Virus record (IMG/VR): IMGVR_UViG_2579778989_000006
Length of the DNA: 10,019 bases
Direction: 5' to 3' (one strand)
DNA from: a virus
Lineage: Duplodnaviria > Heunggongvirae > Uroviricota > Caudoviricetes
Of this stretch, positions 2,343 through 9,126 are shown piece by piece (the first letter of the stretch is position 1; the number at the start of each line of letters is the position of its first letter). Position numbers and translations under genes: made by a program. The notes beneath the pieces are model-generated. The model was not told the DNA's origin. It made no database searches and worked only from the letters and a program-made list of their open reading frames with translations.

Positions 2343-2780
2343 GTGAGCCTACCAGAGTTACGCTTACTGATCCATGAAAATACTGTAAAAATAAACAGTG
2401 TTGATTTAATCAACGCTGATTGCCTGCATTTTATTCAGTCCCTGCCTGATGATTCCATTGACCTGATTGTTACCGATCCGCCGTATTTCAAAGTGAAACC
2501 CGAGGGCTGGGACAATCAGTGGAAGGGCGACGATGATTACCTGAAGTGGCTGGACCAGTGTCTGGCTCAGTTCTGGCGGGAGCTGAAACCTGCTGGAAGT
2601 CTTTACCTGTTCTGTGGACATCGCCTGGCATCTGATATTGAAATCGTGATGCGTAAACGTTTTAATGTGCTGAACCATATCATATGGGCGAAGCCGTTCA
2701 GACCTTGGAGCGCATGCTGTTGTTGCTCACTGGTATTACGAACGGTTTGCTCACGGGGATGTACACATATTAATTGTTGA
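2343..2780 (+). pseudogene. N6-adenine DNA methyltransferase, 5' remnant (truncated)
   Basis: N-terminal part has the catalytic motif IV DPPY (IDLIVTDPPYF) and conserved flanks (SVDLINADCLHFIQSLPDDS, LKPAGSLYLFCG), but the ORF ends after 145 codons in a Cys-rich tail (SACCCCSLVLRTVCSRGCTHINC) with no FxGxG AdoMet-binding motif. Base composition switches to strongly AT-rich at ~2765. Functional methylases of this class are roughly twice this length. Confidence 0.7.
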
Positions 2781-2788
2781 TGTTAATA

Positions 2789-3130
2789 TTACGTCATGTT
2801 ATTAATACAAAATTGCAACGCATCATTCAAAGTATTATAATTATCATTTGTTGCATTTATTATGCCAACATTCCTTGTTGGTCTTCCTTCCGTTGAATAT
2901 TCTATCCAGAATGAGCCGGTGTATTTTGACATTCTATATGTTGCGAATTCTTTTGCATTAATTGGTGGTTTGGTGCCGTTGAGATCCAATATATAACCAC
3001 TTTCTTGAATTGTCTTAGAAAGGCAATTGATTATTTCATTTGTCGATATTTCACTGTCGATTTGAGGATGATTCACAATTAGCCCCATGCAGAGGATGCT
3101 TGAAATTATTATAAAAATATTTTTTATCAT
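2789..3130 (-). CDS. Hypothetical 113-aa protein with N-terminal signal peptide or membrane anchor, on an AT-rich island
   Basis: Minus-strand ORF in a markedly AT-rich segment. N-terminus MIKNIFIIISSILCMGLIVNHP is a hydrophobic signal or anchor sequence; mature part is Asn/Thr/Ile-rich with two Cys (possible disulfide). Opposite orientation to the surrounding phage late genes; no strong Shine-Dalgarno. Not recognised as any known family. Confidence 0.55.
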   Translation of the reverse strand: MIKNIFIIISSILCMGLIVNHPQIDSEISTNEIINCLSKTIQESGYILDLNGTKPPINAKEFATYRMSKYTGSFWIEYSTEGRPTRNVGIINATNDNYNTLNDALQFCINNMT

Positions 3131-3402
3131 GATGTCTGTTTTTGTGAACTTTTAGATAGAATGTCTGCTGTGGAGATATGTATACCTCTTGTGCTCATTT
3201 ATTTCAATAGATAGTTGAGCACTCATTGTGCTAATGGAAGAAGTTTTTTAATATGGAGTATCATCAAAATCACACAATAGTGATTAATATTGCTATTAGA
3301 TAAAGAAGTATCGCTAACTTTGATTTTGTTGAATTTGTTTTTAATAAAAGTTAGTGTGGTTTATATAGCAGGCATATGCATGCTGTTTTTAAAGAAACTT
3401 AT

Positions 3403-3480: not shown

Positions 3481-3557
3481 GCGCTGTTAGCTCAGTTGGA
3501 CAGAGCAATTGCCTTCTAAGCAATCGGTCACTGGTTCGAATCCAGTATGGCGCACCA
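3481..3557 (+). tRNA. tRNA-Arg (anticodon UCU)
   Basis: Manual cloverleaf: acceptor GCGCTGT/ATGGCGC (two G-U pairs), D arm GCTC-AGTTGGACA-GAGC, anticodon arm ATTGC-CTTCTAA-GCAAT (anticodon TCT), variable loop CGGTC, T arm ACTGG-TTCGAAT-CCAGT, discriminator A and encoded CCA. 77 nt. Confidence 0.85.
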
Positions 3558-3558
3558 T

Positions 3559-3633
<75 letters not shown>

Positions 3634-4110
3634 TAGAGGATTATGGGACAGTATAGTGAGCATTTTTCTGCGTTACTTTTCATCGGTAAAAATAAGCATA
3701 CAACAACTATTTATGCTGGCATTAGCTATGATAGTTATTGGTTTTCTCGGAATGTGTTTATTTGTTTACTATATTCTTATCGATAACTGATATTTTTGAT
3801 ATGAATACGGAGTGGTACAAACAAAAATATGAATTCGCTATGGAATCAGGATGTGTAATAAAAATAATAGTCACTAAGTTATAGTTTTTTTTAAAATGTT
3901 AAAAACATCACATTTCATTATGTTGGGCACTGGAGAATACCCAGTCGTTTTGTTAAAAATAATTACGCATGGTGAATCCCCCTAAGCGGAGGGGCAATCA
4001 GCAACTGGTGTTTTGTCACCGACCCTTATCCTTTCTGTGCGGGTTCAGGTGCTGATACTGAACTCACCGGGAGGCACCCGGCACCATGCAAAATTGTCTA
4101 CACTACCACT

Positions 4111-4140
4111 GTAAAAAGCCCCTCTCCGGAGGGGCTTTTC
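4111..4140. terminator. Bidirectional rho-independent terminator hairpin
   Basis: GCCCCTC (4118-4124), loop TCCG, GAGGGGC (4129-4135); A-tract upstream (4113-4117) and T-tract downstream (4136-4139). Confidence 0.6.
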
Positions 4141-4239
4141 TATGGGCAAAAAAAAGCCCGCAGTGAGTGGCGGGCGGGTCGCATGAATATACATCAGGTA
4201 TTTTTATTATCGTGTTCTGATTTTTACCATCTGTGATAA

Positions 4240-7007: not shown

Positions 7008-7223
7008 ATGTACCAGATGGAAAAAATCACAACAGGTGTGTCATACACCACGTCAGCGGTGGGAACGGGCTACTGGTTCCTGCAGTTGCTGGACAGGGTT
7101 TCCCCGTCTCAGTGGGCGGCAATAGGCGTGCTGGGGAGTCTGCTGTTTGGGCTGCTGACATATCTGACTAACCTGTATTTCAAAATCAGAGAGGACCGGC
7201 GTAAGGCCGCCCGGGGAGAGTGA
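7008..7223 (+). CDS. S: Class II holin, S21-type pinholin, with dual-start motif
   Basis: 71-aa ORF; GGAGACGGGG Shine-Dalgarno. Two in-frame starts (Met1 and Met4: [10 protein letters not shown]) as in holin/antiholin pairs. Sequence ...[51 protein letters not shown] closely matches phage 21 S21 as I recall it (two TM segments, charged C-terminus). Confidence 0.85.
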
Positions 7224-7226
7224 ATA

Positions 7227-7784
7227 ATGAACCATGAAGAAATGAATCAGCGCTTCAGTCGCCTGGAAAATGAAATTGCTGAACTGAATAAAAAACTGTC
7301 GACGCTGATGCCTTCTGAAGATGAAAAAAAACGCCGCGATGAGCAGTTTGCTGCGTTTGACGATTATTGTCGGAAAGTGATGAGCAGAAATCTCGCAGAG
7401 TGTTTCAGTATTCATAATGATAATTTCAGTGACCTGGAATGGGAGTGTAACCGGCCATCCTTTGTTGTATCCGGTGATGCCGGGAAAATAACCATCACAG
7501 AAAATGGGAAACTAACACCTCCATCGCACCAGCACAGTGAGGAGCTCATTGAATTTGCCATTGATTACCTGAAGAACAATAAAAAGCAGGGGCTGATGAA
7601 GCGCGTTGGCCGTTGCATGGGATATCTGCAGATAGCTGCTGAGATTGAAGCGCTGGCCAGTGGTGCGGACAAGGATGCAGTTGTGCGGGAGGCTCTTCTT
7701 CGTGATTTTGATAATCCGCCCTTTAAAAAAGTGCCGGCTTACTGGTTTCATCCAGGACTGACTTATCTTAAAGGACGTATATAA
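7227..7784 (+). CDS. Hypothetical 185-aa soluble protein located between holin and endolysin
   Basis: ATG 7227 lies 3 nt after the holin stop (TGA 7221-7223) with GGGGAGAG Shine-Dalgarno inside the holin 3' end, implying translational coupling. N-terminal predicted coiled coil (NQRFSRLENEIAELNKKLSTL), no hydrophobic segment, four Cys. No family recognised. Confidence 0.6.
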   Translation: MNHEEMNQRFSRLENEIAELNKKLSTLMPSEDEKKRRDEQFAAFDDYCRKVMSRNLAECFSIHNDNFSDLEWECNRPSFVVSGDAGKITITENGKLTPPSHQHSEELIEFAIDYLKNNKKQGLMKRVGRCMGYLQIAAEIEALASGADKDAVVREALLRDFDNPPFKKVPAYWFHPGLTYLKGRI

Positions 7785-7826
7785 GCTGGCTCGTTATCTG
7801 TTGCCGATAAATCCTGATAAATATCC

Positions 7827-8360
7827 ATGAACACCAAAATCAAATACGGCCTGTCGGCTGCCGTTCTGGCGCTGATTGCCGCTGGTGCGCCTGCGCCTGA
7901 CATTCTCGACCAGTTTCTGGATGAAAAGGAAGGCAATCACACCACGGCATACCGTGATGGTGCAGGTATCTGGACCATCTGCCGTGGTGCCATCATGGTG
8001 GATGGCAAACCTGTCGTTCCGGGCATGAAGTTGTCGAAGGAAAAATGCGACCAGGTTAACGCCATTGAGCGTGATAAAGCGCTGGCGTGGGTGGAGAAAA
8101 ACATCAGAGTGCCACTGACCGAACCCCAGAAAGCGGGGATCGCGTCATTCTGTCCGTACAACATTGGTCCCGGTAAGTGTTTCCCGTCGACGTTTTATAA
8201 ACGAATTAATGCAGGCGATCGCAGGGGGGCGTGTGAGGCGATTCGCTGGTGGATTAAGGACGGTGGCAGAGACTGCCGTATTCGCTCAAACAACTGTTAC
8301 GGTCAGGTATCCCGTCGCGACCAGGAGAGTGCGCTGGCGTGCTGGGGAATTGACAGATAA
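7827..8360 (+). CDS. R: SAR endolysin (T4-lysozyme-like muramidase, GH24) with signal-anchor-release N-terminus
   Basis: 177-aa ORF. N-terminal Gly/Ala-rich weakly hydrophobic segment (LSAAVLALIAAGAPAP) typical of SAR domains, followed by the lysozyme catalytic triad spacing E-x8-D-x5-T (EGNHTTAYRDGAGIWT). Pairs with the pinholin upstream. Confidence 0.85.
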   Translation: MNTKIKYGLSAAVLALIAAGAPAPDILDQFLDEKEGNHTTAYRDGAGIWTICRGAIMVDGKPVVPGMKLSKEKCDQVNAIERDKALAWVEKNIRVPLTEPQKAGIASFCPYNIGPGKCFPSTFYKRINAGDRRGACEAIRWWIKDGGRDCRIRSNNCYGQVSRRDQESALACWGIDR

Positions 8361-8450: not shown

Positions 8451-8484
8451 AAAACCCCGTTTGTTGGCTGCAAGCGGGGTTTTG
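8451..8484 (+). terminator. Rho-independent terminator-like hairpin between endolysin and spanin genes
   Basis: CCCCGTTTG (8455-8463), 7-nt loop, CAAGCGGGG (8471-8479): 9-bp stem with one G-U pair, followed by TTTTGTGTTT; A-rich tract upstream. Confidence 0.55.
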
Positions 8485-8558
8485 TGTTTCCTGACTCTGG
8501 AAAAGTCAAAGGAGAAAGTGTGTTTGATTTTAGCAAACTGATTCGGGAGATTCGAGTG

Positions 8559-8657
8559 ATGGCTGAAAAATTATCCACCTGGAAGTTCATTCTTATCTGG
8601 CTGGTGTTTGTGATTATGGCCTCCGGTTATTTCATCGGTCAGATACGCTGGTGGTGA
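8559..8657 (+). CDS. Candidate 32-aa membrane micro-protein, translationally coupled to Rz
   Basis: ATG 8559 with GGGAG Shine-Dalgarno 9 nt upstream; product MAEKLSTWKFILIWLVFVIMASGYFIGQIRWW (single hydrophobic helix); stop TGA 8655-8657 is 1 nt before the Rz ATG (TGAaATG). Below the size cutoff of the supplied ORF track. Confidence 0.35.
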   Translation: MAEKLSTWKFILIWLVFVIMASGYFIGQIRWW

Positions 8658-8658
8658 A

Positions 8659-9126
8659 ATGAACCGCGTACTGTGCGTGGTCATCATTGCCCTGCTGGTG
8701 GCCTGTGGTGCGCTTAGTCTGGGGCTGAATCATTACCGTGATAACGCCATAACCTACAAAGAGCAGCGCGATAAAAAAGTCAGTGAGCTGGAGCTGGCAA
8801 ATGCAACCATTACTGATATGCAGCAGCGCCAGCGTGATGTTGCTGCACTTGATGCCAGATACTCGAGGGAATTAGCCGATGCGAGAGCTGAAAATGAAAC
8901 TCTTCGCGCTGACGTTGCCGCTGGTCACCGCAGCCTGCGGATCAACGCCACCTGTCCAGGTCCCGTGCGTGAAGCCACCGGCACCGCCCGCGTGGATAAT
9001 GCAACCGGCCCCCAACTGGCAGACACCGTTACACGGGATTATTTCACCCTCAGAGAGCGGCTGATGACGATGCAGAAGCAACTGGAAGGGGCACAGGACT
9101 ATATCCGCACTCAGTGCCTGAAATAA
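8659..9126 (+). CDS. Rz: Rz i-spanin (inner-membrane spanin subunit)
   Basis: 155-aa ORF with N-terminal TM anchor (VLCVVIIALLVACGALSLGL), coiled-coil middle, and an embedded +1-frame lipoprotein gene, the defining Rz/Rz1 architecture. Confidence 0.85.
   Translation: MNRVLCVVIIALLVACGALSLGLNHYRDNAITYKEQRDKKVSELELANATITDMQQRQRDVAALDARYSRELADARAENETLRADVAAGHRSLRINATCPGPVREATGTARVDNATGPQLADTVTRDYFTLRERLMTMQKQLEGAQDYIRTQCLK
8879..9064 (+). CDS. Rz1: Rz1 o-spanin (outer-membrane lipoprotein), embedded in Rz in the +1 frame
   Basis: ORF wholly inside Rz in another frame; signal peptide with lipobox-like LVTAAC followed by a Pro-rich mature region (CVKPPAPPAWIMQPAPNWQTPLHGIISPSESG) nearly matching lambda Rz1 as I recall it. 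Start may be ATG 8879 (GAGGGA Shine-Dalgarno) or ATG 8894. Confidence 0.8.
   Translation: MRELKMKLFALTLPLVTAACGSTPPVQVPCVKPPAPPAWIMQPAPNWQTPLHGIISPSESG

Follow-up and report, generated by a model that had tools for sequence, protein, structure and literature searches.

Small, cytoplasmic and non-essential soluble antiholins, such as RIII of phage T4 and LydB of phage P1, are encoded beside holin genes and are co-expressed with the holin. Published abstracts describe RIII as cytoplasmic and LydB as an antiholin. A gene can also lie directly between the holin and endolysin genes, as in the Qin prophage of Escherichia coli K-12, where the order is essQ-ydfR-rrrQ. The product of this junction gene, YdfR (b1555), binds RNase E(1-598), the catalytic N-terminal half of the enzyme, in bacterial two-hybrid and co-purification experiments, and RNA is present in YdfR eluates (PMC13232886). 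We found no study of a holin-endolysin junction gene beyond K-12 YdfR, and reviews of the late region of Shiga toxin (Stx) phages do not discuss such a gene (PMC8136144; PMC10462455). Here we describe a gene at the same position in a stretch of 10,019 nucleotides (hereafter the window) from the IMG/VR virus record IMGVR_UViG_2579778989_000006. The gene, referred to as ORF185, is an open reading frame of 185 amino acids between the genes for a pinholin (S) and a signal-arrest-release (SAR) endolysin (R). The window represents the late part of a lambdoid prophage of E. coli; 98% of its length matches the chromosome of strain JKHS016 at 100% identity.

We consider it probable, at roughly 60%, that ORF185, a member of the mosaic YdfR/PHROG 1085 family, serves as an accessory protein that is dispensable, expressed late and cytoplasmic, probably an oligomeric binder, and that its insertion re-wires translation of the endolysin. 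In E. coli phages with a P21-type pinholin and a SAR endolysin, the junction gene takes over a Shine-Dalgarno element that is embedded in the holin gene and otherwise drives the endolysin, and the endolysin is left with a conserved AU-rich leader devoid of such an element. ORF185 itself may act late in the cytoplasm as a coiled-coil oligomer that binds a host or phage macromolecule. It would be dispensable cargo and not part of the lysis machinery; any effect on lysis would be indirect, in that endolysin translation would be uncoupled from holin translation and probably lowered.

Occupancy of the Holin-Endolysin Junction

A sequence-only reading of the window had taken ORF185 for an unusual wedge in the lysis cassette and had proposed a comparison of synteny across related cassettes. 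Holin and endolysin were located in 80 IMG/VR loci with a holin 97-100% identical to that of the window; both genes are present in 77 loci, a count that takes in six earlier reference loci and the window. In 11 of the 77, R follows S directly, 1-4 nucleotides apart, and the remaining 66 have an S-R interval of 358-1316 base pairs, that is, an occupied junction. Most frequently (34 loci) the occupant is a protein of 86-176 amino acids with the DUF1327 domain only. The window type, a coiled coil followed by a C-terminal domain (C-domain), accounts for 15 loci, and the same two modules preceded by DUF1327 for another seven. A convergent gene for a 104-amino-acid protein accompanies DUF1327 plus C-domain in four loci and coiled coil plus C-domain in two; in two others the coiled coil is joined to an unrelated C-terminus.

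The S-R region is matched by 369 GenBank phage records, 101 of which have a DUF1327 gene of the family and 20 some part of ORF185; a junction occupant is found in at least about 30% of these records with the cassette. In phage 933W, S and R are adjacent and there is no junction gene. Occupancy can safely be called frequent, at a level of about 30% to 85% according to the collection sampled, and the window presents no anomaly. With ydfR at the same place in K-12 Qin, the idea of an unusual wedge does not hold.

Translation Signals and Endolysin Expression

The placement of ORF185 behind the holin gene, with its Shine-Dalgarno element inside the holin codons, is confirmed by the sequence: GGGGAGAG is followed by the holin stop codon TGA (7221-7223), the triplet ATA and the ATG of ORF185, which gives a spacer of 3 nucleotides (Table 1). 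The duplex energy with the anti-Shine-Dalgarno sequence is -8.5 kcal/mol for ORF185, whereas the start of the window's endolysin gives +0.3 kcal/mol. The ribosome-binding site of the endolysin, correctly noted earlier as weak, is essentially absent. No promoter-like or terminator-like sites were found in 7008-8360, from the holin through the endolysin gene, and expression of ORF185 can therefore come solely from the late mRNA, which it shares with S, R and Rz.

The same arrangement recurs in every locus of the survey. The holin gene ends in GGGGAGAG and its stop codon, and 3-4 nucleotides further on follows the ATG of the next gene, be it the junction gene or, in adjacent S-R loci, R itself, which is then preceded by the identical element. 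The start of the endolysin reads MN(T/A)KI(K/R)YG in occupied loci versus MSRK(L/F)RYG in adjacent ones. Behind every kind of junction gene the R leader recurs, ending in GATAAATCCTGATAAATATCC-ATG and without a Shine-Dalgarno element. Loci of the phage 86 type have this leader as well, although a convergent gene and about 450 nucleotides part the junction gene from R, so that endolysin translation cannot rest on termination-reinitiation from ORF185. A dependence of endolysin translation on ORF185, which had been suspected from the weak ribosome-binding site, is ruled out, since the same leader and the same N-terminus of R are present in every occupied class. Insertion at the junction does uncouple the endolysin from the ribosome-binding site of the holin; the sequence by itself supports no other effect on the lysis cassette. 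Occupancy thus has a concrete and testable consequence: the endolysin exchanges the Shine-Dalgarno element coupled to the holin for a leader without one, and this switch is conserved.

A separate observation concerns the reading frames. Holin and ORF185 share one frame and are split only by TGA ATA (GAG TGA ATA ATG), and read-through of the stop codon would yield a fusion of about 258 amino acids. Other short-form alleles are likewise in frame with the holin, but their stop codon is TAG; most DUF1327 alleles are out of frame, with a spacer of 4 nucleotides.

Modules, Family and Spread

The profile of PHROG 1085, a family with no assigned function, matches residues 1-185 of ORF185 at an expect value (E) of 1.6e-112, and does so through profile positions 117-296 of 296 only. 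The match is limited in this way because many relatives are longer and carry an N-terminal DUF1327 (PF07041). This domain, which gave the family its name, is not in ORF185; alignments start at the coiled coil behind the DUF1327 of the long forms. In relatives of 268-329 amino acids, such as those of phages Stx2_95 and 86, both of the Stx2 type, the DUF1327/YdfR domain precedes a coiled coil and a C-terminal part 84-95% identical to ORF185. ORF185 also shows the late-operon placement beside a class II holin/lysozyme cassette that is a trait of the family. These alignments indicate that it belongs to PHROG 1085, or the NCBI "YdfR family", through its C-terminal modules only and is not a DUF1327 protein. 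The family is best described as three exchangeable modules, namely the DUF1327/YdfR domain, the coiled coil and a C-domain of about 110 amino acids, of which ORF185 has the last two.

The N-terminal module (N-module) with the coiled coil is found joined to other C-termini (L005/L017) and to DUF1327 (L006/L085). The allele shared by L005 (2001-2486) and L017 encodes 161 amino acids, with an N-module 93.5% identical over residues 1-62 and an unrelated C-terminus; about 510 base pairs of unannotated DNA lie between this allele and the endolysin gene.

RefSeq lists ORF185 as WP_001759956.1, a "hypothetical protein". In a database of 5.8 billion protein clusters, every source-named entry among the 120 matches listed of 170 comes from E. 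coli, and the forms among these 120 are either short (185-222 amino acids) or long (259-296 amino acids). Of 5426 complete E. coli genomes, 885, or about one in six, match the DNA of ORF185 at least partly; it is covered over at least 80% of its length in 250 of the 885, and an identical copy occurs in at least 13 complete genomes. A scan of one genome per species returned loci of Escherichia and Shigella only. The sequence-only reading would have been refuted, by its own account, if the gene proved a common and already characterized component of lysis cassettes in this phage group. The gene is common there, and it is a catalogued but uncharacterized family member.

Among 1.84 billion representative proteins, a profile search gave 42 matches only, the informative ones being from Salmonella enterica and from metagenome assemblies. 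The Salmonella relatives are 30-40% identical to ORF185, and most of the informative matches consist of a DUF1327-like N-terminal domain, a coiled coil and the C-domain. No informative domain fusions were present among the 42 matches, and the very long proteins that were inspected (P0142 and P0144) are repeat artefacts. In all five readable contexts the gene of the relatives lies between Q and the holin gene, and in four of the five the called holin and endolysin genes overlap. Since the relatives in Salmonella stand upstream of the holin, a position between holin and endolysin is not required. The neighboring holins differ as well, with PF04971 in some loci and PF16080 in others. Altogether, the family is a late-operon gene that is kept near the lysis cassette and not tied to the holin-endolysin junction.

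Some C-domain genes are accompanied by a convergent gene of PHROG 1853 (Table 1). The E. coli and Salmonella copies of this partner are 51% identical and occupy different genomic positions, which suggests that the C-domain gene and its partner form a two-gene module. The window has no partner gene, and a search with the partner recovered hypothetical relatives only. In one of the Salmonella enterica prophages with the partner (L091, 2157-3469), the relative of ORF185 is located just 3' of a gene whose product has faint matches to pertussis-toxin S1 and Scabin-like families and may be ADP-ribosyltransferase-like. The cargo position is the same as that of stx in E. coli phages.

Properties and Predicted Structure of ORF185

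The sequence-only reading had described ORF185 as a soluble protein with an N-terminal coiled coil and no recognizable motif, and all three statements were borne out. The maximal mean Kyte-Doolittle hydropathy over 19 residues is 0.76, the grand average of hydropathy (GRAVY) is -0.67 and the isoelectric point (pI) is 6.0; neither a signal peptide nor a transmembrane or other hydrophobic segment was detected. AlphaFold2 reached a predicted local distance difference test (pLDDT) score of 58 from an alignment of E. coli sequences only, too poor for use. A diverse alignment with Salmonella and metagenome relatives was employed instead and gave a pLDDT of 81 and a predicted template modeling score (pTM) of 0.56. 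In this model a helical hairpin (residues 3-27 and 31-64) leads via a disordered linker (62-75) to a beta-meander (79-97) and helices at 101-117, 123-144, 151-161 and 178-184. The N-module also has a heptad a/d pattern formed by L13/I17/L20/L24/L27.

The C-domain shows an invariant motif in E. coli, Salmonella and metagenome relatives, which reads H103...G128-R129-C-M-G-x-L134-Q135...P164-P165-F-K167...W173..P176-G177..Y180-L181. Conserved across all distant relatives, down to about 30% identity, are H103, G128-R129, L134-Q135-x-A137-x-E139, P164-P165-x-K167, W173, P176-G177 and Y180-L181. With a pI of 9.1 the domain is mildly basic, and no nucleic-acid-binding motif was identified in it. Scans of ORF185 against Pfam, NCBIfam and PADLOC gave nothing meaningful, a permissive Pfam scan of 15 diverse family members gave nothing, and a sequence profile search of the PDB returned coiled-coil noise only (E of 0.09 or above). 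A structure-based search, which had been recommended for this protein, was run with Foldseek on the AlphaFold2 model; it yielded no fold match at E < 0.1 in the PDB or BFVD.

Selection and Dispensability

Over the last 110 codons, which encode the C-domain, the pairwise ratio of nonsynonymous to synonymous substitution rates (dN/dS) has a median of 0.30. This ratio, the identical frame in at least 13 complete genomes, the Salmonella relatives, the conserved motif and the pLDDT of 81 mark ORF185 as a real protein under selection. The start MNHEEMNQ, together with a strong Shine-Dalgarno element, heads alleles of 185, 213 and 161 amino acids, and the short architecture is also found in distant relatives at about 30-38% identity, for example P0134 with 184 amino acids. 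The notion that it might be a frameshifted fragment of a longer known gene was rejected in view of the shared start, the short distant relatives and the spacer between holin stop and ATG, which at only 3 nucleotides holds no DUF1327 remnant. ORF185 represents a natural short architecture, to which the long forms add DUF1327.

Frameshifted alleles of the window type were found in five loci (L016, L021 and L084 from one genome, L069 and L045). They encode 26, 27 or 122 amino acids, and those of 26 and 27 diverge over the AATAAAAAACTG run (7285-7295 in the window, A6 run). Together with phages that have no junction gene, namely the 11 adjacent loci and 933W, these alleles argue for a dispensable gene.

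Alternative Explanations

Several points weigh against the reading of ORF185 as dispensable accessory cargo. The only experimental data on the family concern DUF1327, which ORF185 lacks. In phages of both E. coli and Salmonella the gene is always located within about 1 kilobase of the holin in the same transcript, which would also fit a role in lysis. The predicted structure is the sole source of the suggested oligomer and of the role as a binder. Moreover, the occupancy survey is biased, as its 80 IMG/VR loci have the holins closest to that of the window, and adjacent S and R are more frequent among phages recorded in GenBank, where Stx2a phages of the 933W kind predominate. Some of the frameshifts fall in the A6 run and could be sequencing errors, or otherwise real decay, and a single genome accounts for three of the five loci. 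Lysis timing, anti-defense and a moron role had all been put forward for ORF185, and no result singled out any of them.

Foremost among the alternatives, and in our view still unlikely, is a cytoplasmic regulator of lysis timing. ORF185 would then be a soluble antiholin-like or pro-holin factor in the style of T4 RIII or P1 LydB, which is made in step with the pinholin, binds its charged cytoplasmic C-terminal tail and tunes the time of triggering. The translational link to the holin through the embedded Shine-Dalgarno element would suit such a protein, as would solubility, the coiled coil and the location of every relative examined, in a late operon at most about 1 kilobase from a class II holin gene. 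Phage N4 furthermore offers a precedent, in that it encodes a non-essential regulator between pinholin and SAR endolysin (PMC12642591), although the N4 regulator is a membrane protein, which ORF185 is not. Yet many phages with a holin 97-100% identical to that of the window have no junction gene, or an unrelated DUF1327 module alone, and the last four holin codons (A-R-G-E) are constant whatever the occupant, so that there is no covariation. Relatives also accompany another holin family, PF16080, and ORF185 has no match in Pfam, NCBIfam or the lysis category of PHROG. If ORF185 tuned lysis or late expression after all, burst size, lysis timing and, in Stx phages with related alleles, the timing of toxin release would be affected.

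It is improbable that ORF185 is cargo for defense, anti-defense or superinfection exclusion, as one half of a two-gene module whose PHROG 1853 partner has been lost here. Domains are swapped at this hypervariable, mosaic locus, the guanine-cytosine content of ORF185 is slightly below that of the flanking lysis genes, and C-domain gene and convergent partner are found together both in E. coli (L002, L003) and in Salmonella (L091, L098), despite divergence to 35-51% identity and different positions. However, most C-domain alleles, that of the window included, are without the partner, and no PADLOC family was matched at E up to 1 by ORF185, the 329-amino-acid long form (L001), the L005 variant or the convergent partner. 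In the absence of a promoter of its own, expression in the lysogen is not expected, and late timing suits neither exclusion nor early anti-defense.

Comparably improbable is that the C-domain is a new fold that regulates pinholin/SAR-endolysin lysis from the cytoplasm, by binding to the pinholin tail or tethered through rare TGA read-through, or that it is a late host-takeover factor with a new target. If true, either would provide a function for a gene found at least partly in roughly a sixth of complete E. coli genomes and also in some Shiga-toxin phages, whose toxin release is set by the timing of lysis.

That ORF185 modulates the turnover of host RNA late in infection, a role suggested for the DUF1327 domain, seems very doubtful. 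K-12 YdfR binds RNase E(1-598), and long family members fuse DUF1327 to the same coiled coil and C-domain; on the other hand, the interaction surface maps to residues 1-72 of YdfR, within a domain that ORF185 does not have, and few transcripts were altered upon YdfR overproduction (PMC13232886). The only mildly basic C-domain with no identified nucleic-acid-binding motif likewise speaks against this role. Finally, a decaying, functionless remnant of a long YdfR-family gene minus its first domain is hardly credible: frameshifts in some window-type alleles, the lack of the gene in many related phages and a dN/dS of 0.3, which denotes moderate constraint only, stand against a spacer free of any DUF1327 trace, a start with strong Shine-Dalgarno element common to three allele lengths, distant relatives that are short too, an identical intact frame in at least 13 complete genomes and a dN/dS clearly below 1.

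As matters stand, the main value of these results is corrective, in that phages of this group usually have a gene between holin and endolysin; the finding is modest and holds nothing surprising for the specialist. As the C-domain of the occupant family lies outside Pfam and has no fold match, the gene is a reasonable, not an urgent, target for deletion and lysis curves.

Genomic Context

The gene order in the window is DUF968/NinG-like, RusA, Q antiterminator, truncated DNA methyltransferase, two tRNAs, NanS-p-type SASA esterase, DUF1378, DUF826, holin, ORF185, lysozyme and Rz/Rz1; no stx gene is present in it. Coordinates of the main features are collected in Table 1. The N-terminus of the endolysin is weakly hydrophobic and rich in glycine and alanine, and its catalytic residues show the spacing E35-x8-D44-x5-T50, both of which fit a SAR endolysin.

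Table 1. Features of the lysis region in the window and of the convergent partner gene in other loci.
Feature	Position	Strand	Description
Class II (P21 S-type) pinholin	7008-7223	+	71 amino acids, dual start Met1/Met4 (MYQM); PF04971 "Bacteriophage P21 holin S", E 9e-33; PHROG holin families; RefSeq "class II holin family protein"
Shine-Dalgarno element GGGGAGAG	7213-7220	+	Within the final holin codons; serves whichever gene comes after the holin
ORF185	7227-7784	+	185 amino acids, ATG start; short form, without DUF1327, of the mosaic YdfR-family/PHROG 1085 late accessory gene
N-module of ORF185	7233-7418	+	Residues 3-64; predicted helical hairpin/coiled coil, AlphaFold2 pLDDT 83-94
C-domain of ORF185	7452-7781	+	Residues 76-185; predicted three-strand beta-meander and four helices, AlphaFold2 pLDDT 76-95 over 80-160
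Endolysin leader	7785-7826	+	AU-rich, no Shine-Dalgarno element; conserved across all occupied-junction classes
SAR endolysin R	7827-8360	+	177 amino acids, T4-lysozyme family; PF00959, E 3e-24; PHROG 7 endolysin
Rz i-spanin	8659-9126	+	PF03245, E 6e-48
Rz1 o-spanin open reading frame	8879-9064		Embedded in Rz
Convergent partner gene	L002 3974-4288, L003 4074-4388 (E. coli); L091 4599-4916, L098 4807-5124 (Salmonella)	-	104-105 amino acids; PHROG 1853

Several further features were observed outside the junction. Two tRNA genes, tRNA-Arg(TCT) and tRNA-Gly(TCC), lie in the late region at 3481-3633 (+); a closely related prophage of strain GON1437 has tRNA-Ile, tRNA-Arg and tRNA-Arg together with an iraM gene in their place. 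A full-length match to the Rfam family STnc100, a gammaproteobacterial small RNA, is situated at 3937-4147 (+), 3' of the tRNAs and 5' of the esterase gene (140.8 bits, E 8e-32). Within 2343-3300, the DNA methyltransferase gene is truncated and is annotated in RefSeq as a pseudogene that lacks the C-terminus, the gene of the intact relative measuring 1050 base pairs; the AT-rich stretch that follows holds a minus-strand open reading frame of 113 amino acids (2789-3130) with a signal-peptide-like N-terminus. Between the endolysin and Rz genes, a strong terminator-like hairpin of 14 pairs followed by a T run is found at 8451-8483 (+), and behind it an annotated open reading frame of 45 amino acids at about 8520-8657.

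Comparison With Known Systems

The closest described counterparts of ORF185 are YdfR of Qin and the DUF1327 proteins of Stx phages, such as gp05 of the Stx2-converting phage 86, which share both the locus between class II holin and lysozyme and membership of PHROG 1085. The K-12 protein, however, corresponds to the DUF1327 part only, precisely the part that ORF185 lacks. The junctions differ as well, since the ydfR stop codon overlaps the rrrQ start by 4 nucleotides (L095 4055-4058), whereas 42 nucleotides separate ORF185 from R in the window; the Qin endolysin, unlike that of the window, may be translationally coupled to its junction gene.

T4 RIII and P1 LydB resemble ORF185 in being small, cytoplasmic, non-essential and expressed with the holin, but no sequence or family relationship to them was found, and the relatives of ORF185 occur with more than one holin family. 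Classic morons, bor among them, are flanked by a promoter and a terminator of their own and are active in the lysogen, and in the record of 933W bor is marked as expressed in the lysogenic state; ORF185 has neither element and does not qualify as a moron of this type. The gene for gp62 of phage N4 likewise lies between pinholin and SAR endolysin and is non-essential, yet its product is transmembrane with holin-like toxicity, whereas ORF185 is devoid of a hydrophobic segment (PMC12642591). ORF185 also resembles other late-operon cargo of lambdoid and Stx phages, such as stx, nanS-p, bor and ant, the last located in 933W between R and Rz. Like ORF185, such cargo is variable and dispensable, is set among conserved late and lysis genes and is carried on Q-dependent late transcription (PMC8136144).

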